This document shows positions 1 to 10,927 of a DNA stretch of 10,927 nucleotides, piece by piece. The notes beneath the pieces were generated by a model, which searched no databases, had not been told where the DNA came from, and was given only the letters and a program-made list of their open reading frames with translations. The stretch's first letter is position 1. Every line of letters starts with the position of its first letter. This stretch comes from Armatimonadota bacterium (lineage in GTDB: Bacteria > Sysuimicrobiota > Sysuimicrobiia > Sysuimicrobiales > Humicultoraceae), in the NCBI GenBank assembly GCA_037446215.1, contig JBBIJB010000073.1:1-10927 (forward strand), given 5' to 3'. The translations under genes were made by a program, and so were the position numbers.

Positions 1-54
1 AGCCGGGCAGCAGGTGACCGGTGCGCACACCCGTGGGTCGGCTCGGAGTTCTTG

Positions 55-83
55 TTGACGGGGCCCGGGGCTCGGCCTATAAT
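55..83 (+). promoter_or_regulatory. sigma70/SigA-type promoter for the hpt-guaB3-guaA operon
   Basis: TTGACG (55-60), a 17-bp spacer, then a perfect TATAAT (78-83) in very GC-rich DNA. Predicted start is near position 90, followed by SD-like GAGGTG (100-105) and the TTG start at 116. Confidence 0.85.
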
Positions 84-115
84 GGCGAAAACCCCACGCG
101 AGGTGAAGGTTCCCC

Positions 116-661
116 TTGCCCCTGGCAGATGATGTCGCCGAGGTTCTGATCCCGGAGGAGGCCCTCCAGGGTCGAATCCGGGAGCTGGGAGAGCAGATCT
201 CGCACGAGTACGACGGCAAGGAACCTCTTCTGGTAGGCATCCTGACGGGTGCCTTCGTGTTTCTCTCCGACCTGCTGCGCTACGTGAAGATCCCCTGCCA
301 CGTGGACTTCATGGCCACCGCTTCCTACGGCGGCGGGACCGAGAGCAGCGGCATCGTCAGGATCCTCAAGGACCTCAACCAGACGATCGAAGGACGCCAT
401 GTCCTGATCGTCGAGGACATCATCGACACCGGACTCACCATGGACTACCTGCTGGAAACGCTCAAGGCCCGTTATCCGGCCTCGTTACGCGTCTGTGCCC
501 TCCTGGACAAGCGCCCCCGCCGCCGCCGCGAGGTCCCGATCGACTTCCCGGGCTTCGAGATCCCGGACAAGTTCGTGATCGGGTACGGCCTCGACTACGA
601 CGGCCGGTACCGCAACCTGCCGTTCATCGGCGTGCTGAAACCAGAGCTGTACGGCGCGTGA
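116..661 (+). CDS. hpt: hypoxanthine(-guanine) phosphoribosyltransferase
   Basis: 181 aa, TTG start. Has the type I PRT PRPP-binding loop VLIVEDIIDTGLT, the SYGGGTESSG flexible loop and the C-terminal FVIGYGLDYDGRYRNLP signature. Confidence 0.97.
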   Translation: MPLADDVAEVLIPEEALQGRIRELGEQISHEYDGKEPLLVGILTGAFVFLSDLLRYVKIPCHVDFMATASYGGGTESSGIVRILKDLNQTIEGRHVLIVEDIIDTGLTMDYLLETLKARYPASLRVCALLDKRPRRRREVPIDFPGFEIPDKFVIGYGLDYDGRYRNLPFIGVLKPELYGA

Positions 662-704
662 TCAGCATGCGTGGAGAGCTCCACCCCGGGAGAGGTGAGC
701 GCCC

Positions 705-1919
705 GTGAGCAGAGTGATGCAACCGACTGAGGTCCGGCGCCCTCCCGACGTCGAGCGGGGAGGCGAGCTGTTGGGGCTGGGCCGGCGGGTCAGGCGCACC
801 TACAGTTTCGACGACATAGCCCTGGCACCGGCCGCCTCGACCCTCGACCCGGACGACGTGGACTGCTCGTGGCAGGTCGGCTCCCACCTCTTCAGGCTCC
901 CCTTCGTGGCCTCGGCGATGGACAGCGTGGTGGACGTGAGGACCGCGGCGGCGCTCGGCACCCTGGGCGGCCTTGCGGTCCTGAACCTCGAAGGCCTCCA
1001 GACCCGCTACGCCGATCCCGAGGAGCCCCTCTCGGCGATCGCCGCGGCAGACCCCGATGCCGTTGTTGCGCTGCTGCAGCGCCTCTACGGCGCCCCGATC
1101 AGGGACGAGTTGGTTGCTGCCCGCATCGGCGCGATCAAGGCTTCCGGCGAAGCCGCCGCGGTCTCGGTGACGCCCGCCGGGGCAGCGCGCCTGGCCGCCC
1201 TCGCAGAGGAGGCGGGCGCCGACATCCTGCTCGTTCAGTCGACCGTTGTGACGGAGGAGCACCGCTCCGCCGGGGGGAGGAGGCTCTCCCTACGAGAACT
1301 GACCTCGGCCTCGCGGCTGCCCGTGATGGCCGGGAACTGCGTGGGCTACGCGCCCGCCCTCCGGCTGCTGGAATCCGGGGTGGCCGCGCTCTTCGTGGGG
1401 GTCGGGCCCGGCGCGGCGTGCACCAGCAGGAGGGTGCTTGGGATCGGCGTGCCGCAGGCAACCGCGATCTGCGACGTTGCGGCGGCACGCGACGAGTTCC
1501 AAAGGCGCACCGGAAGGTACGTCCCGATCGCGGCGGACGGCGGCATAGCCACGGGCGGGGAGGTAGCGAAGGCGATCGCGTGCGGGGCGGACGCGGTGAT
1601 GCTGGGTTCGGCGCTCGCCCGCGCCGCCGAGGCCCCGGGCCGCGGCTACCACTGGGGGATGGCCGCGCCGCACGCGTTCCTGCCGCGGGGCACCAGGATA
1701 AGGGTGGGCTCGACCGGAACGCTTCGGCAGATAGTGCTGGGCCCGGCCACCGTCGACGACGGCACCCACAACCTGGCGCTGGCGCTTCGCACAGCGATGG
1801 GGCTGTGCGGGGCGGGGACGATACGCGAGATGCACGCCGCCGAGCTCGTGCTGGCGCCCGCCCTGCAATCCGAGGGGAAGGCCGTCCAGTTCAGCCAGCG
1901 GGTGGGGCAGGGGCGCTGA
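705..1919 (+). CDS. guaB3: IMP dehydrogenase family protein, GuaB3 type (no CBS/Bateman domain)
   Basis: 404 aa, GTG start after SD GAGAGGTGA (690-698), with an alternative ATG at 717. Motifs: [32 protein letters not shown] (GuaB3-typical), catalytic loop [11 protein letters not shown] (Cys at 1419-1421), [24 protein letters not shown]. Confidence 0.92.
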
Positions 1920-1921
1920 CC

Positions 1922-3469
1922 GTGGCCAGACCCCAGGCGGGCGCGCGGCCCGTGGTCGTCCTCGACTTCGGAGCGCAGTACGCCCAGCTGATAGCGCGTC
2001 GGATCCGCGAGAGCCGCGTATACAGCGTGATCCTTCCCTTCGACACGCCCCTGCGGGAGTTGCTCGCGCAAGACCCCCTGGGGATCGTACTGTCCGGAGG
2101 CCCGGCAAGCGTCTACGAGCCCGGCGCCCCTCAAGCCGACCCGGCGCTGTTCGAAGCCGGGATTCCGGTGCTTGGGATATGCTATGGAATGCAGTTGATG
2201 GCTCAGGCGATGGGAGGCACCACCGGGGCCTCGGGCCACCGCGAGTACGGCCGCACCCGTCTCTTCGTCACCGACGGCGGCGACCTGTTCTCGGGGCTGG
2301 AGCCCCGCCTCATCTGCTGGATGAGCCACGGCGACTCGGTCGGAGAGCTTCCCCCGGGGTTCGATGTCCTCGCCCACACCGACCGTAACCCGGTGGCCGC
2401 GATCGCGGACCGCTCGCGCCGGCTCTACGGGCTGCAGTTCCACCCGGAGGTCTCGCACACTCCCTGGGGGATCGAGGTCCTGCGCAACTTCCTCTACGGG
2501 GTGTGCGGCTGCGAGCCCGCCTGGACCATGGCCTCGTTCATCGACAAGAGCGTCGGCGCGATCCGAGGGCAGGTGGGAGGCGGCCGGGCGGTGTGCGGGC
2601 TGTCGGGCGGCGTCGACTCGGCGACCGCGGCGGCGCTGGTGCACCGCGCCATAGGAGATCAGCTTACCTGCATCTTCGTCGACCACGGGCTGCTGCGGAA
2701 GGACGAGCCCGAACAGGTCGTGGCCACCTTCAAGGATACCTTCCAGGTGCCGCTGGTGCACGTCGACGCCCGCACGCGGTTCCTGGGGAGGCTCGCCGGC
2801 GTCACCGACCCCGAGCAGAAGCGTAAGGCGATAGGCGCGGAGTTCGTGCGGGTCTTCGAGGAGGAGGCCCAGCGGCTGGGCGAGGTCGAGTTCCTGGTGC
2901 AGGGGACGCTCTACCCGGACGTGATCGAGAGCGGAACGCGCACCGCCTCCCGGATAAAGACCCACCACAACGTAGGCGGCCTGCCGGAGGTGATGCGGCT
3001 GCGCCTCGTGGAGCCGTTCCGCGACCTCTTCAAGGACGAGGTCCGGGAGGTGGCACGCCATCTGGGCCTGCCCGACCGCATGGTCGTCCGCCACCCGTTC
3101 CCGGGTCCCGGGCTGGCGGTGCGGATCCTCGGCGAGGTCACCTCCGAGAGGCTGGAGCTGCTGCGCGAGGCTGATGCCATCGTGCTCGACGAGCTTCGGG
3201 AGGCCGGCCTGATGCTTGAGATCTGGCAGGCGTTCGGGGTGCTGCTTCCCGTCCACACGGTGGGGGTGATGGGCGACGCCAGGACCTACGGCCACGTGGT
3301 CGTGGTGAGGGCCGTCACCAGCGAGGACGGCATGACCGCCGACTGGGCCCGGCTGCCCGAGGGCGTGCTGGAGTCGATCGCCAGCCGCGTCACCCGCGAG
3401 GTCCCGGGGGTGACGCGGGTCGTCTACGACATAACAAGCAAGCCCCCCGCGACCATAGAGTGGGAGTAG
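1922..3469 (+). CDS. guaA: GMP synthase (glutamine-hydrolysing)
   Basis: The likely start is GTG at 1922, 2 nt after the guaB3 stop, giving 515 aa. Motifs: [15 protein letters not shown], class I GATase GICYG and FHPE, ATP-pyrophosphatase [25 protein letters not shown], and C-terminal [10 protein letters not shown]. Confidence 0.97.
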
Positions 3470-3472
3470 GGT

Positions 3473-3501
3473 TTGCCGAGATCCCTCGCCGCCGATATAG
3501 T
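3473..3501 (+). promoter_or_regulatory. putative sigma70-type promoter for pcrA
   Basis: TTGCCG (3473-3478), a 17-bp spacer, then TATAGT (3496-3501) within the 44-bp guaA-pcrA spacer. The ATG follows at 3514. Confidence 0.6.
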
Positions 3502-3513
3502 TGACGGCGGACC

Positions 3514-6500
3514 ATGGACCTTCTATCGGGACTGAACCCCCCTCAGCGCCAGGCGGTCACCCATCCCGGCGGCCCCCTGCTCATACTCGCGGGTGCGGGC
3601 TCGGGCAAGACCCGCGTTCTCACCCACCGCATCGCATACCTGATCAGAACCCGCCGGGTCTCCCCACGACGGATCCTGGCGGTCACCTTCACGAACAAGG
3701 CCGCGGGCGAGATGCGAGAGCGTGTGGGGACCCTGCTCGGAGGGCCCGTCGCGCGCGACATCTGGATCGGCACCTTCCACGCGATCTGCAGCCGCATCCT
3801 GCGCGTCGACGGCGAGCGCGTCGGAGTAGGCCCCAACTTCGTGATCTACGACGAGGAGGAGCAGCGCAAGGTGATCCGCGACTCCGCCGCACGGCTGGGG
3901 TTGGACGAGCGGCGCTACCCGCCGGCGGCGCTCCACGCGATGATAGGGCGCGCCAAGGACGAGGCGGTCGGCGCGGCCTCCTACGCGGCCCGGGCCTCCA
4001 ACTTCATGGAGGAAGCCGCGGCGCGCGTCTGGCTGCTCTACCAGGAGGAGTTGCGGAAGCGAGGGGCGCTCGACTTCGACGACCTGCTCTGCGAGACGCT
4101 GCGGCTGTTCGACGGGCACCCGGACGTGCTGCGCCACTACCAGGAACGGTTCGAGCACGTGCTGGTGGACGAGTACCAGGACACCAACCACGTCCAGTAC
4201 CTGCTGGTGCGGTCAATCGGCGGGCTGCACCGCAACGTGACAGTGGTGGGAGACGACGACCAGTGCATTGTGGCCGGTACGCCGATCCACCGTTTAGGCG
4301 GTACATCCCCCATCGAGTCCCTTGAGGAGGGGGCGGGTGTCATGGCGGCCTGCGGCGGTGGCCGCCTGGCGCCCGCGGCCTCCGCAGCGCCGCTGGAGCG
4401 CCACTACGACGGGCACGTCGTGACGGTGCGCACCCTCGGCGGCCACCGCCTCACCGCTACCCCAAACCACCTCGTCTTCGGGCGTCTCGTGCCGCGAGAG
4501 GATCTTCACTACGTCTACTTGATGCACAGGCGCGGCAAGGGCTACCGGATCGGACGTACCCGAGGCATGCGCTCCCGGCGACCCGGCGGTGTTGATTGCG
4601 GGCTTGGCCTCCGACTGAACGGCGAGGTAGCCGACCGCCTGTGGGTGATAGCGGCCACGCCGGATGAAGCAGAGGCGGCGTGTCTGGAGCAGCTCTACGC
4701 CTTCACACACGGCATACCCACCACGGTATTCCACGTGCGCGGGCGGAGGATGCAGATGTCTCAGCATCACGTCGACCGGGTCTTCGGCGGGATCGACACC
4801 GAGGCCCGCGCCCACTGCCTGCTCGCGGAGCTCGGTATGCTTCCCGAGTACCCTCACCTTCGCGCGGGTGCCGTGGTCAGGGGTCAGAGCGCGCGACGGC
4901 TCGTGCACTTCACTATGTTTGGTGATCGCAGGGTCTACCTCAACCGTCCGTGGGCCGATCACCGCATCCAGCTCGTGACCTCGGGAGCGGGGACACGCGC
5001 CCGGGTGAACGAGCACTACCAGACACGGGAGAGCCGCGCGACGGTCTGGCGTGTCGAGACCGCCCGCAGGGACTACGATACGGGTTGGCACATGGCCCGC
5101 CACCTCGCCGCCCTCGTGGAGGGCGAGCCCGTACTTCGGGCGTGCGTGGTCGGGCCGGAGCGGCGCTCCGCCGGATCAGCACCGAGGTACCGGCCCGTGC
5201 ATCAGGTTCTGCCCATTGGCCATCTCCACGAAGGGATGATGCTGGCCGTTGTCCGCGACGGACGCGTCGTCGAGGACGAGGTGGTCTCGCGGGTCATGGA
5301 GCCCTACAGCGGACCAGTGTACGACTTAGACGTTCGGGATCTCCGCACATACATCGCCGGCGGCGTGCTAGTTCACAACTCGATCTACCGGTGGCGAGGG
5401 GCCGACGTCCGCAACATCCTGGAGTTCGAGCGCGACTACCCCGACGCCGCCGTGGTCACCCTGGCCCAGAACTACCGCTCGACCCGCAACATCCTGGACG
5501 CGGCCAGCGCCGTCATCAAGAACAACCCGCACAGGCATGCCAAGGAGCTGTGGACGGGAAACGAGGAGGGCGCCCCCGTCCTGGTCTACGAGGCGGCAGA
5601 CGGCTCGGAAGAGGCGCGCTTCGTGGTCGAGCAGGTGAAGGAGACGGCCGCCGGGGGACTGCGCTTGCGGGAGATGGCGGTTCTCTATCGGACCAACGCG
5701 CAGTCGCGCCTCCTCGAGGAGGAGTGCCTGAGGGCGGGCGTGCCCTACCAGATCGTAGGCGGCGTCCGCTTCTACGAGCGCAAGGAGATAAAGGACCTGC
5801 TCGCGTACCTGCGCCTGGCCGTGGCGCCCGAGGACGAGGCGAGCCTGCGCAGGGCGGTGGCCGCGCCCCGGAGGGGAATTGGAGAGATAACCCTCGCGCG
5901 CCTGGCCTCCTATGCCGCGGCGGCCGGGTGCGGGTTGCTGGAGGCGATGCGAAGGCCGGAGGCGCTGGAGGGGCACTCGCGGGGCGCCTCCGGCGCGGTC
6001 GCCGAGTTCGTAGGCATCGTCGACGGCCTCACCGAGCAGGCCGGGTCGCTCCCGGCGAGCCAGGTGATAGCGAGGGCGATCTCACAGACCGGCTACGGCG
6101 CCATGCTCGAGGCGGAGGGCACCGAGGAGGCGTTGGGCCGGCTCGAGAATCTCCGAGAGCTCGCCAGCGTAGCGCGCGAGGTGGAAGAGTCCACCGGCGA
6201 GCCGCACCTCGCCGCCTTCCTGCAGCATCTCGCGCTGGTCTCCGACGTCGACACCTACAGAGACGATCTCGACCAGTTGACCCTGATGACGCTGCACAGC
6301 GCCAAGGGGCTCGAGTTCCAGGCCGTCTTCTTCACCGGGCTCGAGGAGGGGCTCTGCCCGCATGCGAGGGCGATGGAGGAGGAGGGGGGGCTCGAGGAGG
6401 AGAGGCGGCTCTGCTACGTGGGCTTCACCAGGGCGAAGACGCGCCTGCTTCTGACGCACGCCCTCGTGCGCGCGACCTTCGGCAGCCCGATGATGACGGT

Positions 6501-6822
6501 GCGCTCGCGGTTCCTGGACGAGATCCCGCAGGAACGGGTGGCGGAGGCGAGGAGCAGCCGCGCGCGCGCCTGGGATGCGGCCCTTCCGTGGCGCGGTCGC
6601 CCCGGGTGGGCTTCCGCCGCTACGGGCTCGGGAGGGGGCGGCACCGGGCCTGCGTCGCCGCTGCCGGACCTCGAGGTCGGCGACCGGGTCAGGCATGCCA
6701 GGTTCGGGGACGGAGAGGTGCTCGAGGTCGAGGGCGAGGGGGGCGGCGCAATAGTCACCGTGAGGTTCGCCGGTGCCGTCAAGCGGCTGGCCCTCGGCTA
6801 CGCACCGATGGAGCGCCTGTAG
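3514..6822 (+). CDS. pcrA: ATP-dependent DNA helicase PcrA/UvrD (SF1A), intein-containing precursor of 1102 aa (730 aa after splicing)
   Basis: Q motif LNPPQ, Walker A LAGAGSGKT, Ia VTFTNKAA, II LVDEYQDTN, III VGDDDQ/SIYRWRGA (split by the intein), IV LAQNYRST, LYRTNAQSR, V LMTLHSAKGLEF, VI EEERRLCYVGFTRA. A Gly-rich linker precedes the C-terminal Tudor-like domain VGDRVRHARFGDGEV. Confidence 0.96.
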   Translation: MDLLSGLNPPQRQAVTHPGGPLLILAGAGSGKTRVLTHRIAYLIRTRRVSPRRILAVTFTNKAAGEMRERVGTLLGGPVARDIWIGTFHAICSRILRVDGERVGVGPNFVIYDEEEQRKVIRDSAARLGLDERRYPPAALHAMIGRAKDEAVGAASYAARASNFMEEAAARVWLLYQEELRKRGALDFDDLLCETLRLFDGHPDVLRHYQERFEHVLVDEYQDTNHVQYLLVRSIGGLHRNVTVVGDDDQCIVAGTPIHRLGGTSPIESLEEGAGVMAACGGGRLAPAASAAPLERHYDGHVVTVRTLGGHRLTATPNHLVFGRLVPREDLHYVYLMHRRGKGYRIGRTRGMRSRRPGGVDCGLGLRLNGEVADRLWVIAATPDEAEAACLEQLYAFTHGIPTTVFHVRGRRMQMSQHHVDRVFGGIDTEARAHCLLAELGMLPEYPHLRAGAVVRGQSARRLVHFTMFGDRRVYLNRPWADHRIQLVTSGAGTRARVNEHYQTRESRATVWRVETARRDYDTGWHMARHLAALVEGEPVLRACVVGPERRSAGSAPRYRPVHQVLPIGHLHEGMMLAVVRDGRVVEDEVVSRVMEPYSGPVYDLDVRDLRTYIAGGVLVHNSIYRWRGADVRNILEFERDYPDAAVVTLAQNYRSTRNILDAASAVIKNNPHRHAKELWTGNEEGAPVLVYEAADGSEEARFVVEQVKETAAGGLRLREMAVLYRTNAQSRLLEEECLRAGVPYQIVGGVRFYERKEIKDLLAYLRLAVAPEDEASLRRAVAAPRRGIGEITLARLASYAAAAGCGLLEAMRRPEALEGHSRGASGAVAEFVGIVDGLTEQAGSLPASQVIARAISQTGYGAMLEAEGTEEALGRLENLRELASVAREVEESTGEPHLAAFLQHLALVSDVDTYRDDLDQLTLMTLHSAKGLEFQAVFFTGLEEGLCPHARAMEEEGGLEEERRLCYVGFTRAKTRLLLTHALVRATFGSPMMTVRSRFLDEIPQERVAEARSSRARAWDAALPWRGRPGWASAATGSGGGGTGPASPLPDLEVGDRVRHARFGDGEVLEVEGEGGGAIVTVRFAGAVKRLALGYAPMERL
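4264..5379 (+). mobile_element. intein (1116 bp, 372 aa) in PcrA motif III, carrying a ~240-aa internal domain with a GIY-YIG-like motif
   Basis: In-frame insertion between VGDDDQ and SIYRWRG. Block A CIVAGTPI starts with Cys1 and block B is LTATPNHLVF (TxxH at 4459-4470). Block F is GPVYDLDV and block G is GVLVHN followed by Ser+1 (5380-5382). Removing it restores the canonical motif GDDDQSIYRWRGA. Confidence 0.96.
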
Positions 6823-6915
6823 GGCGGCGGGCGCTGGAGGAGATTGCCGCGCACAGGAGTAAATTATTGGAACCCGGCGGCGTGCCGTGCTCGGGGGTCG
6901 CGGGGGAGAAAGCCC

Positions 6916-6923
6916 AAGGAGGT
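6916..6923 (+). promoter_or_regulatory. strong Shine-Dalgarno site for the solute-binding protein gene
   Basis: AAGGAGGT lies 8 nt upstream of the ATG at 6932. Confidence 0.8.
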
Positions 6924-6931
6924 AGCGGGAG

Positions 6932-8677
6932 ATGAGCACTGTGCTGTCACGGACTCTGGTGGCGGTGATCTGCGCGGCGCTCCTCGTTACGGCTCCGGTC
7001 GCGGCCCAGCAGCCTGCTCGGGGCCTCCCGGGCATTCCGAAGCCCATGATCGTGGAGGCCGACGAGGCCGGTCGCTACGGCGGGACCTTCGTCGTTACCT
7101 CCATCTCGGATCCACGGACCTTCAACTCGATAGTGGCCCAGGAAACCTCTTCCACGGTTCCGCTCGGATACATGTTCGAGGGACTGGTCGAGACGAACCG
7201 CGTGACCACGGAGGTAGAGCCCTCGATCGCCGAGTCGTGGACCGTGACCAAGGACGGCAAGACCTGGCGGTTCAAGATGCGGCAGGGGATCAAGTGGTTC
7301 GATGGGAAGCCGGTTACCGCCGACGACGTGGTGTTCACGCTCGACGCCGCCTTCACGCCGGGGGTGCAGTCGAGCCTGCGCGACGTGCTGACCATAGCGG
7401 GCAAGAAGATCGGCTACCGCAAGGTCGACGACTACACCATGGAGTTCAAGACCGACGAGCCGTTCGGGCCGTTCCTGCGGCAGATCGGCTTCGCTGTCGT
7501 GCCCAGGCACAAGCTGGAGGACTCCCTCAAGAAGGGCGCCGCCGAGTTCAACAGGACGTGGGGCGTGAACACCCCGCCGCGCGAGCTCGTGGGCAGCGGC
7601 CCGTTCGTGATGCACGCCTACACCCCCGGCCAGCGGATCCTCTACGTGCGCAACTCCAACTACTGGAAGGTGGACAAGAGCGGGCAGCGGCTCCCCTACC
7701 TGGCGCGGCTCGTGGTCGAGATCGTGCCCAACCTCGACGCCGCGCGCCTGAAGTTCATGGCCAAGGAGACCGACTCCTACCCCGCGAGACCGCGGGAGTA
7801 CGCCGAGCTGCGCGCCCAGCAGAAGGCGGGCGACTTCCAGATCTTCGACGGCCCGCCCACCTTCTCGACCGAGTTCCTGGTCTTAAACCAGAACCCCGCC
7901 GGGATAAGGCCGCCGAAGCTCACTTGGTTCCAGAACGCGAAGTTCCGACAGGCGATCAGCCACGCGGTGGATCGCGACGCGATAGTCCGCCAGGTCTACG
8001 CAGGGCGCGCAACCGCTCAGTGGGGTCCGACCAGCCCGGCCAACAAGTTCTTCTTCAACCCGAACTTGCGCAAGTACCCCTACGACCTGGCGCGGGCCGA
8101 GGCCCTGCTTCGGGAGGCCGGGTTCACCAAGGGGGCCGACGGCCAGCTGCGCGACTCCGCGGGCAACCTGGTGGAGTTCACGATCGCGACGAACGCGGGC
8201 AACACCGACCGGGAGGCGATCGGGAACCTGGTGCGCCAGGACCTGACCAAGCTGGGCATGAAGGTCACGTTCGCCCCTGAGGCTTTCAACACGCTCGTCG
8301 GCAAGCTGACCGGCACCTTCAACTGGGAGGCGATCATCATCGGCCTGACCGGGGGGCTCGACCCGCACGGCGGGCAGAACGTCTGGAAGTCCGGCGGCTC
8401 GCTGCACATGTGGTGGCCCAAGCAGGAGAGCCCGGCCACCGACTGGGAGGCGGAGATCGACAGGATATTCGACCAGGCGGCCACAACCGTCGACCAGAAC
8501 CGGCGCAAGCAGCTCTACAATCGCTGGCAGGAGATCGTCTCAGAACAGGTGCCGATGGTGTACTTCACGACCACGCTGACCCAGCCGGCGTTTCGCAACA
8601 CGCTCTCCAACTTCAGCAACGCGCCGCTCGCCTTCTACGACATAGAGACGATCTACTACAAGACCCCCTACAGGTGA
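6932..8677 (+). CDS. ABC transporter substrate-binding protein, family 5 (OppA/DppA/AppA/NikA-like)
   Basis: 581 aa with an N-terminal signal peptide ending VAA|QQ. Family 5 signatures: SDPRTFN, FEGLVE, PSIAESW, KWFDGKPVTADDVVFT, VGSGPF, RNSNYW, FRQAISHAVDR, YDLARAEALLREAG. The substrate cannot be determined from sequence. Confidence 0.93.
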   Translation: MSTVLSRTLVAVICAALLVTAPVAAQQPARGLPGIPKPMIVEADEAGRYGGTFVVTSISDPRTFNSIVAQETSSTVPLGYMFEGLVETNRVTTEVEPSIAESWTVTKDGKTWRFKMRQGIKWFDGKPVTADDVVFTLDAAFTPGVQSSLRDVLTIAGKKIGYRKVDDYTMEFKTDEPFGPFLRQIGFAVVPRHKLEDSLKKGAAEFNRTWGVNTPPRELVGSGPFVMHAYTPGQRILYVRNSNYWKVDKSGQRLPYLARLVVEIVPNLDAARLKFMAKETDSYPARPREYAELRAQQKAGDFQIFDGPPTFSTEFLVLNQNPAGIRPPKLTWFQNAKFRQAISHAVDRDAIVRQVYAGRATAQWGPTSPANKFFFNPNLRKYPYDLARAEALLREAGFTKGADGQLRDSAGNLVEFTIATNAGNTDREAIGNLVRQDLTKLGMKVTFAPEAFNTLVGKLTGTFNWEAIIIGLTGGLDPHGGQNVWKSGGSLHMWWPKQESPATDWEAEIDRIFDQAATTVDQNRRKQLYNRWQEIVSEQVPMVYFTTTLTQPAFRNTLSNFSNAPLAFYDIETIYYKTPYR

Positions 8678-8684
8678 TCTGCCG

Positions 8685-8714
8685 CGGGGGAGGGGCGTAA
8701 TCGCCCCTCCCCCG
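8685..8714 (+). promoter_or_regulatory. 13-bp perfect stem-loop between the binding-protein and permease genes (mRNA stabiliser or partial terminator)
   Basis: CGGGGGAGGGGCG-TAAT-CGCCCCTCCCCCG, 7 nt after the stop codon, with no U-tract. Confidence 0.75.
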
Positions 8715-8724
8715 GCCTCCTCCG

Positions 8725-9690
8725 ATGCTGCGCCACATCCTGCGCCGGCTCTTCCACCTGATCCCGATGATGCTGGGGATAACCCTCTTCTCGTTCGCCA
8801 TCATCCAGCTCTCGCCCGGCGACTACCTGGCGGAGATCCGCATGAACCCGGTGGTCAGCCAGGAAACCGTGGACCAGATGCGGGCCAACTTCGGACTCGA
8901 CCAGCCGCTGCACATCCAGTACCTGAAGTGGCTCTGGAACGCTCTGCGTCTCGACTTCGGATACTCATTCGCGTTCCAGGTGCCGGTCATGTGGCTGATA
9001 GGGTCGCGCCTACTCAACTCGCTGCTGCTGAACATCGTGGCCTTCGCCGTCGCGTGGGCGCTCGCGATTCCGTTGGGCATACACGCCGCCCGCAGGCAGT
9101 ATTCCTGGTCCGACAACTCGCTCTCATTCGCCGCTTACGTCGGCATCTCCACCCCCACGTTCTTCTCGGGGCTGTTCCTCCTGTACATCGCCTACAGGAC
9201 CGGCTGGCTGCCGATAGGCGGCATGACCAGCATCGAGCATGAGTTCCTCCCGTGGTGGGGTAAGGTGCTCGACGTGGCCCACCACATGGTGCTCCCGGTC
9301 CTGGTGCTCGGCGTGTTGAGCGTGGCGGGGCTGATGCGCCAGATGCGGGCCAACCTGCTCGAGGTGATGCGCCAGGACTACGTCAGGACGGCCCGCAGCA
9401 AGGGCCTTGCCGAGAACGTGGTGGTCAACAGACACGCGGTCAGGAACGCGATCAACCCGCTCGTCACGATCTTCGGGTTCAGCCTGGGCGGGCTGCTCGG
9501 CGGTTCGGCGATCCTGGAGAACGTGATGGGCTGGCCCGGAATAGGGAGGCTGATCGTCGAGGCGACGATCCAGAAGGATCTCTACGTGGTGATGGCGTCC
9601 CTAGTCATCGGCTCGGTCACTCTGGTGGTCGGCAACCTGATAGCGGACGTGCTGCTGGTGCTGACCGACCCGAGGATAAGGTACGATTAG
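8725..9690 (+). CDS. peptide/nickel ABC transporter permease (OppB/DppB/AppB-like)
   Basis: 321 aa with about 6 hydrophobic segments. Motifs: HILRRL, SPGD, FGLDQPLHIQYLKWL, DFGYS, EAA loop DYVRTARSKGL, RHAVRNA, WPGIGRL, and C-terminal DPRIRY. Confidence 0.94.
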   Translation: MLRHILRRLFHLIPMMLGITLFSFAIIQLSPGDYLAEIRMNPVVSQETVDQMRANFGLDQPLHIQYLKWLWNALRLDFGYSFAFQVPVMWLIGSRLLNSLLLNIVAFAVAWALAIPLGIHAARRQYSWSDNSLSFAAYVGISTPTFFSGLFLLYIAYRTGWLPIGGMTSIEHEFLPWWGKVLDVAHHMVLPVLVLGVLSVAGLMRQMRANLLEVMRQDYVRTARSKGLAENVVVNRHAVRNAINPLVTIFGFSLGGLLGGSAILENVMGWPGIGRLIVEATIQKDLYVVMASLVIGSVTLVVGNLIADVLLVLTDPRIRYD

Positions 9691-10812
9691 ATGCGCTCCC
9701 CCGGCGACCGCAGAGGCGGGGCTCCCTCGGGCGCGGGGCAGGCGCGCACGCCGGCCCAGATGGCGTGGAGGCAGCTTCGCCGCCACCGCATGGCGCTTGC
9801 CGGAGGGGCCGTCCTCATCCTCCTCTACCTGCTCGCGATCTTCGCGGAGGTGATCGCCCCGTACAGCCTGGACTACGCCGACAGGGAGAGGTTCTTCCAT
9901 CCGCCGGTGCTGCCGAGGTTTGCCGATGCCCAGGGGATCAGCCTGCGGCCGTTCGTCCACGGCACCTCGCTGGTGGATCCCGGCCTCCGGAAGTACGCGG
10001 TGGACGAGACCCAGCGGCACTACGTGAGGTTCCTGGTACGGGGCGAGCCCTACCTGCTGTTTGGCGTCTTCCCCGGCTCGATCCACCTGTTCGGGGTGGA
10101 CGAGCCGGGCCGGATCTTCCTGATGGGCACGGACCAGTCGGGCAGGGACCAGTTCAGCCGCATCCTGTACGGTTCCAGGATCTCGCTGACCATAGGGATG
10201 ATGGCCGCCGCGGTCACGATTCCCATCGGCCTGCTCTACGGCGGCATCGCCGGCTACTACGGGGGACGCGTGGACAACGTGATGATGCGGCTCTCGGAGA
10301 TCATCATCGCCTTCCCCGAGTTCTACCTCCTGCTGACGCTGAGCGCGGTGCTCCCGTCCGCTGTGGGGTGCACCACCAGGTTCTACCTCATTACGCTGAT
10401 ACTCTCGTTCATAGGGTGGGCGGGCTTCTCGCGGCTGATCAGGGGCCTGGTCCTCTCGCTGAAGGAGCGTGAGTTCGTCCTGGCCGCCAAGGCCGCGGGG
10501 CTCGACGACTTCCGAATCATCGTGCGCCACGTGCTCCCGCAGACCTCCTCGCTTGTCATAGTGGTGGTGACGCTCGGCATTCCGGGCGCGATACTGGGGG
10601 AGTCGGCGCTCTCGTTCTTCGGGTTCGGCGTGCGCGAGCCGTGCTCTTCGTGGGGCAACCTCCTCACCACGGCGTCGAACCTGCCCACGCTGATCCTGTC
10701 GCCCTGGCTGCTCTTCCCGGGGCTGTTCATCATAGCCGCGGTGGTGGCCTTCAACCTGTTCGGGGACGGTCTGCGGGACGCGCTCGACCCGCGGCACCGG
10801 ACTTCGTCCTAG
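9691..10812 (+). CDS. peptide/nickel ABC transporter permease (OppC/DppC/AppC-like)
   Basis: 373 aa, with the ATG immediately after the upstream TAG. Motifs: WRQLRRHRMA, MGTDQSGRDQFSRILYGSRISL, EAA loop EFVLAAKAAG, RHVLP, ESALSFFGFG, SWG, FNLFGDGLRDALDPR. Confidence 0.94.
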   Translation: MRSPGDRRGGAPSGAGQARTPAQMAWRQLRRHRMALAGGAVLILLYLLAIFAEVIAPYSLDYADRERFFHPPVLPRFADAQGISLRPFVHGTSLVDPGLRKYAVDETQRHYVRFLVRGEPYLLFGVFPGSIHLFGVDEPGRIFLMGTDQSGRDQFSRILYGSRISLTIGMMAAAVTIPIGLLYGGIAGYYGGRVDNVMMRLSEIIIAFPEFYLLLTLSAVLPSAVGCTTRFYLITLILSFIGWAGFSRLIRGLVLSLKEREFVLAAKAAGLDDFRIIVRHVLPQTSSLVIVVVTLGIPGAILGESALSFFGFGVREPCSSWGNLLTTASNLPTLILSPWLLFPGLFIIAAVVAFNLFGDGLRDALDPRHRTSS

Positions 10813-10831
10813 CCGGTCTAGGAGGAGCAGC

Positions 10832-10927
10832 ATGAACGCGGAAGCGCAGGCGAACTTGCAGCAACAAACGGCCCCGGGCACGCTGCTCGTGCTCGCGACC
10901 TACGGGCTTGAGATAGTCGAGGTCGGC
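10832..10927 (+). CDS. partial CDS running off the window, possibly a divergent PIG-L/LmbE-family deacetylase-like protein
   Basis: SD AGGAGG at 10820-10825 and ATG at 10832, with an open frame MNAEAQANLQQQTAPGTLLVLATYGLEIVEVG. The gene start is well supported, but the product guess rests on only 32 codons. Confidence 0.5.
   Translation, partial: MNAEAQANLQQQTAPGTLLVLATYGLEIVEVG

Follow-up and report, generated by a model that had tools for sequence, protein, structure and literature searches.

According to the accessible text of Beyer et al. (2019; PMC6801210), all intein endonuclease domains occupy one conserved site, and the same text states that inteins with an endonuclease elsewhere 'should exist' if invasion is random and proposes a steric clash with the exteins as the filter. 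In canonical class-1 inteins such as PI-PkoII, PI-PfuI and the Tli and Pho VMA inteins, a LAGLIDADG domain is found between blocks N4 and F of the HINT splicing domain, at the 'C35' site. Accessory domains next to the endonuclease have been described as well, and in PI-SceI (the yeast VMA intein) a DNA recognition region is inserted into the HINT domain (Beyer and Iwai, 2022; PMC8966425, accessible text). Here we describe an intein and its extra module encoded within the pcrA/uvrD helicase gene of an Armatimonadota bacterium (GenBank assembly GCA_037446215.1, contig JBBIJB010000073.1); the window, i.e., the whole stretch of DNA that was analyzed, comprises positions 1 to 10,927 of that contig. 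This PcrA intein resembles the canonical class-1 inteins in possessing a HINT domain with blocks A, B, N4, F and G, a Cys1, a TxxH motif, a His-Asn end and a nucleophilic +1 residue, in containing a large nested domain, and in being inserted into a conserved motif of a DNA-metabolism enzyme. In contrast to them, it carries its module between block B and N4.

In the accessible literature, the nucleases found in frame within inteins are LAGLIDADG and HNH enzymes, Vsr-like and endonuclease VII-like enzymes occur in other arrangements, and one accessible statement holds that GIY-YIG domains are not known in inteins. The accessible text of a 2025 preprint on actinobacteriophage inteins (10.1101/2025.01.02.630785) names LAGLIDADG, HNH, Vsr-like and endonuclease VII-like types, and GIY-YIG is not in that list. 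UvrD has been recorded as an intein host in 16 cases (Novikova et al., 2016; PMC4760082, accessible text). Our literature search, outside whose reach most subscription journals lay, returned no description of the PcrA intein lineage treated here; phrase searches gave no paper on a PcrA/UvrD intein and none on a GIY-YIG intein, no link between an intein and T5orf172 was found in the accessible texts, and a search for alternative endonuclease insertion sites yielded no counter-example to the single-site rule.

Position of the module within the HINT fold

Profile alignments and a predicted structure together confirm the placement of a large extra module in a different HINT loop from the site called universal in published intein studies. 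The parts of the gene and of the intein to which the residue numbers below refer are as follows.

3514..6822, plus strand: pcrA/uvrD gene, the longest open reading frame, encoding a precursor of 1102 amino acids (aa) and, after splicing, a helicase of ~730 aa.
4264..5379, plus strand: class-1 intein of 372 aa in helicase motif III (DDDQ/C...HN/SIYRWRGA), assigned from the sequence, library matches and conservation.
4264..4485, plus strand: N-terminal part of the HINT fold, intein residues 1-74 (blocks A, N2 and B); the N-terminal profile ends at block B and the model strands lie within 2-74.
4459..4479, plus strand: block B, TPNHLVF, residues 66-72 (T66 and H69, both invariant).
4486..5199, plus strand: non-canonical insert, residues 75-312, between the block B strand and the N4 strand, placed by profiles, model and fold search.
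5200..5256, plus strand: predicted equivalent of block N4, residues 313-331, which includes LPIGHLHEGMMLAV, aligns with N4 of the Pho RadA and Mtu RecA mini-inteins and contains the strands 313-317 and 326-331.
5209-5250, plus strand: LPIGHLHEGMMLAV, residues 316-329, read from the sequence.
5257..5262, plus strand: canonical endonuclease insertion site, here the two-residue turn D332-G333, located by the flanking model strands, by the start of the PI-PkoII alignment and by the lack of any insertion in 68 homologues.
5263..5379, plus strand: blocks F and G, residues 334-372 (VYDLDV with D354; terminal VHN), from the profile alignment and a match of TIGR01443 intein_Cterm at 351-372.
5380..5382, plus strand: Ser+1, the first residue of the C-extein (SIYRWRGA, the second half of helicase motif III), read from the sequence.

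Directly after LPIGHLHEGMMLAV follows VRDGRVVEDEVVS (intein residues 330-342), block F (VYDLDV) begins at residue 352, and block G (GGVLVHN) comprises residues 366-372.

Two profiles were compared with inteins of solved structure, one covering the last 64 intein residues of 16 diverse family members and the other covering the first 78 residues. The C-terminal profile aligned with the Pho RadA mini-intein (4e2u) at E=8.7e-11, its positions 6-64 falling on residues 107-166 of the chain, and this alignment ran unbroken through N4, F and G to the terminal HN. On the Mtu RecA mini-intein, profile positions 7-64 fell on 81-139, and matches were also obtained with Spl DnaX, with the CDC21-1 mini-intein 6rpp (labeled 'cell division control protein') and with Tvo VMA. 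With the endonuclease-bearing PI-PkoII, the alignment did not start until profile position 24 (window residue 332), after the PI-PkoII endonuclease, and this start coincides with the expected canonical site. The N-terminal profile stopped at block B in each of its alignments (Pho RadA 62-97, E=0.09; Mtu RecA 1-76, E=0.35; hedgehog 1-74; gp41-1 8-68), and from the profile ends on both sides it follows that a stretch of 9 residues in Pho RadA (98-106) is represented by about 244 residues in the PcrA intein. A phmmer search against PDB sequences placed intein residues 319-372 on 85-139 and residues 11-72 on 13-76 of the 139-aa Mtu RecA mini-intein, these matches being weak (E ~0.01).

An AlphaFold2 model of the intein, obtained with a 69-row alignment, reached a predicted local distance difference test score (pLDDT) of 94.9 and a predicted template modeling score (pTM) of 0.92. 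In this model the insert is flanked by the strands 70-74 and 313-317, the N4 strands do not precede it, and the strands 326-331 and 334-354 are joined by only the two residues 332-333. When the model was submitted to Foldseek, template modeling (TM) scores of 0.80-0.83, normalized to the 139-aa Mtu RecA mini-intein, were obtained in alignments of ~380 columns which spanned the whole query. Insertions of at least 3 residues were looked for throughout residues 313-372 and none was present in the 68 homologues aligned. The canonical layout, with the nested domain between N4 and block F, is therefore not that of the PcrA intein. The initial annotation had proposed, for nucleotides 4486-5205, an insert between block B and N4 with a short turn at the canonical site, and had taken LPIGHLHEGMMLAV for the N4 equivalent; its coordinates and block order were exact (4486-5205 is in frame and encodes residues 75-314), both profiles and model agree with the position, and LPIGHLHEGMMLAV, aligning as it does with N4 of solved mini-inteins, belongs to the HINT fold. 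The start of the insert stands as proposed, whereas its end is moved by the model to residue 312 (nucleotide 5199). What is left after removing the insert (residues 1-74 and 313-372, i.e., 74 + 60 = 134 residues; 74+58 in the earlier estimate) is of mini-intein size, as had been claimed. If the layout had been misread, the insert would sit at the canonical site and its first residues would form N4; we found nothing in favor of such a reading, and it is contradicted by the phmmer and profile alignments, by the model and the fold search, and by the insertion-free stretch 313-372 in 68 homologues, so that it is hardly credible.

The residues required for class-1 splicing are all in place. The N-terminal nucleophile C1 follows directly on DDDQ, T66 and H69 form the TxxH of block B within TPNH, and the block F Asp (D354), the terminal His-Asn (H371 and N372) and the nucleophilic Ser+1 complete the set. 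Among 148 aligned sequences C1, T66, H69, D354, H371 and N372 are invariant, and the +1 position, read at the junctions of 68 loci, is S and rarely C. Intein models of Pfam and TIGR match the window intein, but below their cut-offs. As all class-1 splicing residues are present and an essential helicase motif is split, the intein would have to splice, and from its sequence we infer that it is splicing-competent.

Compared with the mini-inteins (Mtu RecA delta-delta-Ihh, Pho RadA, Npu DnaB, Spl DnaX and gp41-1), with which the 134-residue HINT part aligns end to end, the PcrA intein carries an insert of about 238 residues where these have a short hairpin, ~9 residues long, that links block B to N4. 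There is also a likeness to PI-SceI, which holds a sizeable extra domain within HINT itself and not at the HINT/endonuclease junction. Its DNA recognition region presumably follows the block B histidine and precedes N4, which would be the same loop as that of the PcrA insert. PI-SceI domain I (1gpp) was a fold match of the whole intein at E=2.7e-4. The PI-SceI region, with roughly 70-90 residues, serves as an accessory that binds DNA and works next to a LAGLIDADG domain located at the canonical site, whereas in the PcrA intein the loop holds the sole extra module, which resembles a nuclease plus a binding part. Since the PI-SceI region would occupy this loop as well, insertion at the loop would in itself have a precedent, and the novelty would lie in the presence of an entire nuclease-like module after block B and not in the tolerance of the loop for inserts. 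The earlier suggestion of a new insertion site for intein engineering is to be toned down accordingly; still, the hairpin after block B is a candidate natural site for domain insertion or splitting, to whose tolerance PI-SceI already hints.

Nature of the inserted module

Modeled alone, the insert reached a pLDDT of 91.7, and it can be divided into four segments.

4495..4713, plus strand: N-lobe, residues 78-150, a GIY-YIG-like strand-strand-helix-strand-helix arrangement with the motifs hYVYLM and G(Y/F)R(I/V)G, R103, R117-x-N-x-E121, W127 and E142; assigned from residues invariant in 19 members, the model and weak GIY-YIG signals.
4714..4878, plus strand: middle, residues 151-205, with a YGIPTxVFH segment, helices 167-176 and 179-189 and a YPHHR motif (P197 and H198 invariant).
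4879..5151, plus strand: C-lobe, residues 206-296, alpha/beta and presumed to be DNA-binding, with R211, F219, H233-R234 and W262-R263; missing from some relatives.
5152..5199, plus strand: variable linker, residues 297-312, recognized by gap fractions, a pLDDT of 62 at 301-310 and a mean identity of 0.18.

In the window, the linker (RSAGSAPRYRP region) contains about 12 extra, poorly modeled residues that are absent in most relatives. Mean pairwise identity amounts to 0.48 in the N-lobe, 0.49 in the middle and 0.38 in the C-lobe, to 0.39 and 0.45 in the two HINT parts, and to 0.49 and 0.45 in the PcrA exteins, so that the insert is as conserved as the helicase itself and under strong constraint. 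Among 19 members sharing at most 50% identity, 18 residues are invariant; they include Y85, L86, M87, G93, R95, G97, R103, R117, E121, W127, E142, P197, H198 and R211, and many of them are polar. The six shortest of 116 inteins, which were examined individually, all have internal deletions, and all of these lie within residues 157-314. In the relatives P0031 and P0115 the C-lobe is wholly or mostly deleted, and it is also absent from the intein of a prophage methyltransferase described below, which fits a separable part that probably binds DNA. A duplication of one lobe was considered and rejected, as hhalign compared N-lobe and C-lobe with a probability of 0.2%.

The N-lobe is a probable, as yet unproven, nuclease of the GIY-YIG superfamily. 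The hYVYLM motif (Y85) lies on strand 82-89 and the G(Y/F)R(I/V)G motif (G97) on strand 93-100, after which a helix, a strand and a further helix follow; the invariant R103 and E142, the latter on the helix after strand 3, complete a pattern that resembles the GIY-YIG nuclease core and was mapped onto I-TevI residues by eye. In this mapping by eye, an equivalent of the conserved Asn of GIY-YIG enzymes was not identified. A comparable motif pair on two adjacent strands, followed by a conserved Arg and Glu, is found in I-TevI, the phage T4 Seg enzymes and T5orf172-type enzymes, and the order of a catalytic part, a linker and a presumed DNA-binding part is shared with free-standing GIY-YIG homing enzymes. 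The known GIY-YIG homing enzymes are free-standing or encoded by introns, whereas the insert is in frame within an intein.

Several independent, individually weak signals point to the same superfamily. Pfam GIY-YIG (PF01541) matched weakly in 4 of the 19 members (best E 0.0084) and no other family recurred. The neighbors of the N-lobe in a language-model comparison were viral clusters, 23 of 30 being labeled T5orf172, GIY-YIG or SegE_GIY-YIG. In a viral fold library, 11 of the 50 matches listed for the insert were named GIY-YIG (best E 0.011) and 2 further ones 'group I intron endonuclease' (best E 2.5e-3). The nearest neighbors in both comparisons are of the GIY-YIG superfamily, with similarities below significance. 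Only three matches in the viral library were significant and these were to large proteins, the best of them unnamed and the others named DNA helicase and adenine methyltransferase; the latter two presumably carry related inteins.

A number of results weigh against a GIY-YIG assignment. For the insert of the window itself, no family in Pfam, NCBIfam or PHROGs was found, no model scoring above its cut-off; the insert profile matched no PDB sequence at E up to 10, and the fold search of the insert against the PDB gave nothing at E up to 0.001. No GIY-YIG enzyme was among the 48 weak PDB fold matches listed, and it was LAGLIDADG proteins, with 15 of the 48, that were enriched. Alignment by hhalign with seven GIY-YIG enzymes of phage T4 was not significant (probability 0.8%, P=0.066), and the sole stretch aligned was strand 3 with the Glu helix. 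The spacing from the GIY to the YIG element is shorter in the insert than in I-TevI. Among proteins of 120-406 aa, a search by shared 5-residue words, which may miss distant relatives, gave 30 matches that all look like fragments of intein-bearing pcrA, none of them with a GIY-YIG Pfam label. The initial annotation had spoken of a different nuclease, and this stands insofar as the window insert has no LAGLIDADG or HNH match in Pfam; the GIY-YIG-like motifs are there, yet no test for GIY-YIG was significant, and the identity is thus only probable.

The enrichment of LAGLIDADG proteins in the PDB fold list raises the question whether the insert is a diverged LAGLIDADG endonuclease. However, these 15 matches (E 0.19-0.49, probability 0.05-0.54) are all non-significant and have TM scores of 0.15-0.2, a LAGLIDADG match in Pfam is found neither in the window nor in the 19 members, and no internal repeat is detectable between the two lobes. 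Moreover, the insert has the order strand-strand-helix-strand-helix whereas LAGLIDADG enzymes have helix-strand-strand-helix-strand-strand-helix, and we regard a LAGLIDADG origin as very unlikely.

An endonuclease might also be hidden in a different reading frame of the insert or in its antisense strand, as in some actinobacteriophage inteins whose alternative-frame arrangements are described in the accessible text of the preprint 10.1101/2025.01.02.630785. An open frame of 269 aa does run antisense to the insert (minus strand, 4294-5103). In 76 related loci, the longest stop-free stretch in the five other frames had a median of 78.5 aa, and none exceeded 146 aa in the 58 loci with a G+C content below 0.45, long ones occurring only in G+C-rich members. 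As related loci of low G+C content have no such frame, the 269-aa frame is best explained as a by-product of high G+C content. The protein encoded in frame, for its part, is conserved and confidently folded. An antisense or alternative-frame endonuclease was rejected because long alternative frames are confined to G+C-rich members, and the probability left to it is negligible.

Distribution, inheritance and possible role of the intein lineage

A search with the intein region returned 152 proteins of PcrA length, and the 120 of them that were listed shared 36-99% identity with it, nearly all over the full intein. With the insert alone as the query, 674 out of 1.84 billion cluster representatives matched at E up to 0.001. 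In a genome scan with one genome per species, relatives were present in 174 species-representative genomes. Eighty loci were retained, and in 76 of them the intein lies at the same motif III junction; these inteins measure 315-379 aa, most of them 358-371 aa. Carriers belong to the Armatimonadota, to many Bacillota (including Geosporobacter, Desulfosporosinus, Clostridium bovifaecis, Tissierella, Thermobrachium and Ammoniphilus), to the Chloroflexota, Elusimicrobiota, Saccharibacteria and Victivallales, and include a deltaproteobacterium. The closest relatives of the window insert, with 73-79% identity over the insert, come from uncultured bacteria, among them Armatimonadota-like genomes. Cultured hosts in the family include Geosporobacter ferrireducens, Clostridium bovifaecis, Desulfosporosinus lacus and Thermobrachium celere.

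Beyer et al. (2019) raised the question of why endonucleases in other places are missing from inteins, and a widespread and conserved lineage with a whole accessory module in another loop is the counter-example called for by it. The single-site rule is thus not absolute, and the lineage offers a natural test of the steric model. It also suggests that inteins acquired endonucleases more than once, and if the N-lobe is indeed an active GIY-YIG enzyme, a nuclease family would be added to those known in frame in inteins. The independent invasion put forward in the initial annotation may be kept as a statement on the origin of the whole lineage, in which a mini-intein would once have been invaded at the block B/N4 loop; the window itself inherited an architecture common to hundreds of relatives.

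A related insert was detected in 15 Streptococcus suis prophages, inside an adenine methyltransferase. On translation, the methyltransferase intein is complete and collinear with residues 1-202 of the window intein (31% identity, E=1e-22), and its block B/insert junction is the same as in the window. With a collinear intein of the same junction in the phage methyltransferase, the unusual architecture belongs to a lineage that has colonized at least two unrelated host genes. In Streptococcus phage Javan599 (locus L001, 1292-3403), an unannotated intein of ~285 aa lies within the methyltransferase (ParB_N + N6_N4_Mtase), where it takes up residues 293-577 of P0266, and 14 further S. suis phage records besides Javan599 carry a relative of the insert. 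In some pairs, the similarity of the inteins exceeds that of the exteins by up to 17 points. Mobility is supported by the spread over phyla at one site, by the jump to the phage methyltransferase and by these pairs in which intein similarity exceeds that of the exteins.

Two further observations count against the module as a homing nuclease. Over 2278 pairs, intein identity and extein identity are correlated (r=0.70), from which it follows that inheritance is largely vertical, and decay is rare in the lineage, whereas a purely selfish endonuclease would be expected to decay more often. Two proteins that look free-standing, P0250 (353 aa) and P0236 (290 aa), begin with a Met and retain the order HINT-N, insert, HINT-C; in both, splicing residues are lost (no Cys1; block B reads LPKQ or IPKQ for TPNH), as is the conserved Tyr85 of the insert, and P0250 ends with YC instead of HN. 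Judging from their sequences, P0250 and P0236 may derive from inteins that decayed or were domesticated, a notion for which yeast HO offers a parallel.

We consider it likely that the locus encodes a class-1 intein in motif III of pcrA with an accessory module nested after block B, most likely made up of a GIY-YIG N-lobe, a helical middle and a DNA-binding C-lobe, and that this intein homes in the following manner. After folding of the 1102-aa precursor, the HINT parts 1-74 and 313-372 would splice by an acyl shift at Cys1 aided by T66/H69, attack by Ser+1 and cyclization of Asn372 aided by H371/D354, and PcrA motif III would be restored. The released intein would then cut pcrA alleles that lack an intein, close to the codons of motif III, and would be copied into them during repair. 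In this scheme both the nuclease activity and the cleavage target are presumed.

The insert might instead be a DNA-binding or regulatory accessory domain and not a nuclease, comparable to the PI-SceI DNA recognition region, and be either the relic of a lost homing system or kept by the host, for example for coupling PcrA maturation to DNA or stress. Such a role would agree with the sub-threshold outcome of every nuclease-family test, with a conservation of the insert equal to that of the exteins, with largely vertical inheritance (r=0.70) and rare decay, and with a model that packs the module rigidly on HINT (pTM 0.92). However, invariant residues appear to occupy the catalytic places of GIY-YIG enzymes (a Tyr on the first strand, a Gly on the second, then an Arg, and a Glu on the helix that follows the third strand), the independent weak signals converge on one superfamily, the lineage has reached an unrelated phage gene, which needs some mobility, and there is no second endonuclease anywhere in the intein; a non-nuclease role is therefore unlikely in our view, though far from negligible. 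Given the correlation between intein and extein identity, the rarity of decay and the lack of any free-standing relative among the matches of 120-406 aa, the module may have a host-retained, non-selfish role. In one version of it, to which we assign a low probability, the host would use the insert as a DNA-sensing switch: binding of DNA or damaged DNA by the insert, packed next to block B, would control the timing of PcrA splicing, and the module would not be, or not only be, a selfish nuclease. In this reading, again of low probability, the module would have persisted for hundreds of millions of years, conserved to the same degree as the exteins, in a helicase that is often essential and in several phyla.

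Host gene, surroundings and further relatives

Pfam analysis of the 1102-aa protein encoded in the window gave UvrD-helicase (1.1e-85), UvrD_C (3.9e-69) and PcrA_UvrD_tudor. Upstream of pcrA are genes for a phosphoribosyltransferase, an IMPDH-family protein and GMP synthase, and downstream are genes for a family-5 solute-binding protein and two permeases; the genes around pcrA are ordinary chromosomal genes. The G+C content of the intein (0.66-0.68) is slightly lower than that of its flanks (~0.70).

Among 13 long matches that were scanned, 12 contain UvrD-family domains, often together with several inteins. The UvrD-family proteins P0185, P0223, P0230, P0235, P0253 and P0259 have 1500-2500 aa and two or three inteins each, some of which carry LAGLIDADG domains and others the insert domain described here; three stretches were matched in P0185. 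The end of one intein of P0223 directly precedes ...CQD (motif II region), and that of another precedes SIYGFRGA (motif III). In the protein P0121 (332 aa), which lacks a HINT N-part, the C-terminal portion of a class-I tRNA synthetase (KMSKS region) leads straight into the insert domain, and the sequence closes with a low-complexity stretch; the contig of P0121 has 1676 bases, and the protein could be an assembly chimera, a frameshift product or a real fusion. In P0231 (1466 aa), in which Pfam finds intein domains only, the insert-bearing intein ends with ...VVHN/CLYGWRKA, a junction like that of the prophage methyltransferase and not like PcrA motif III.

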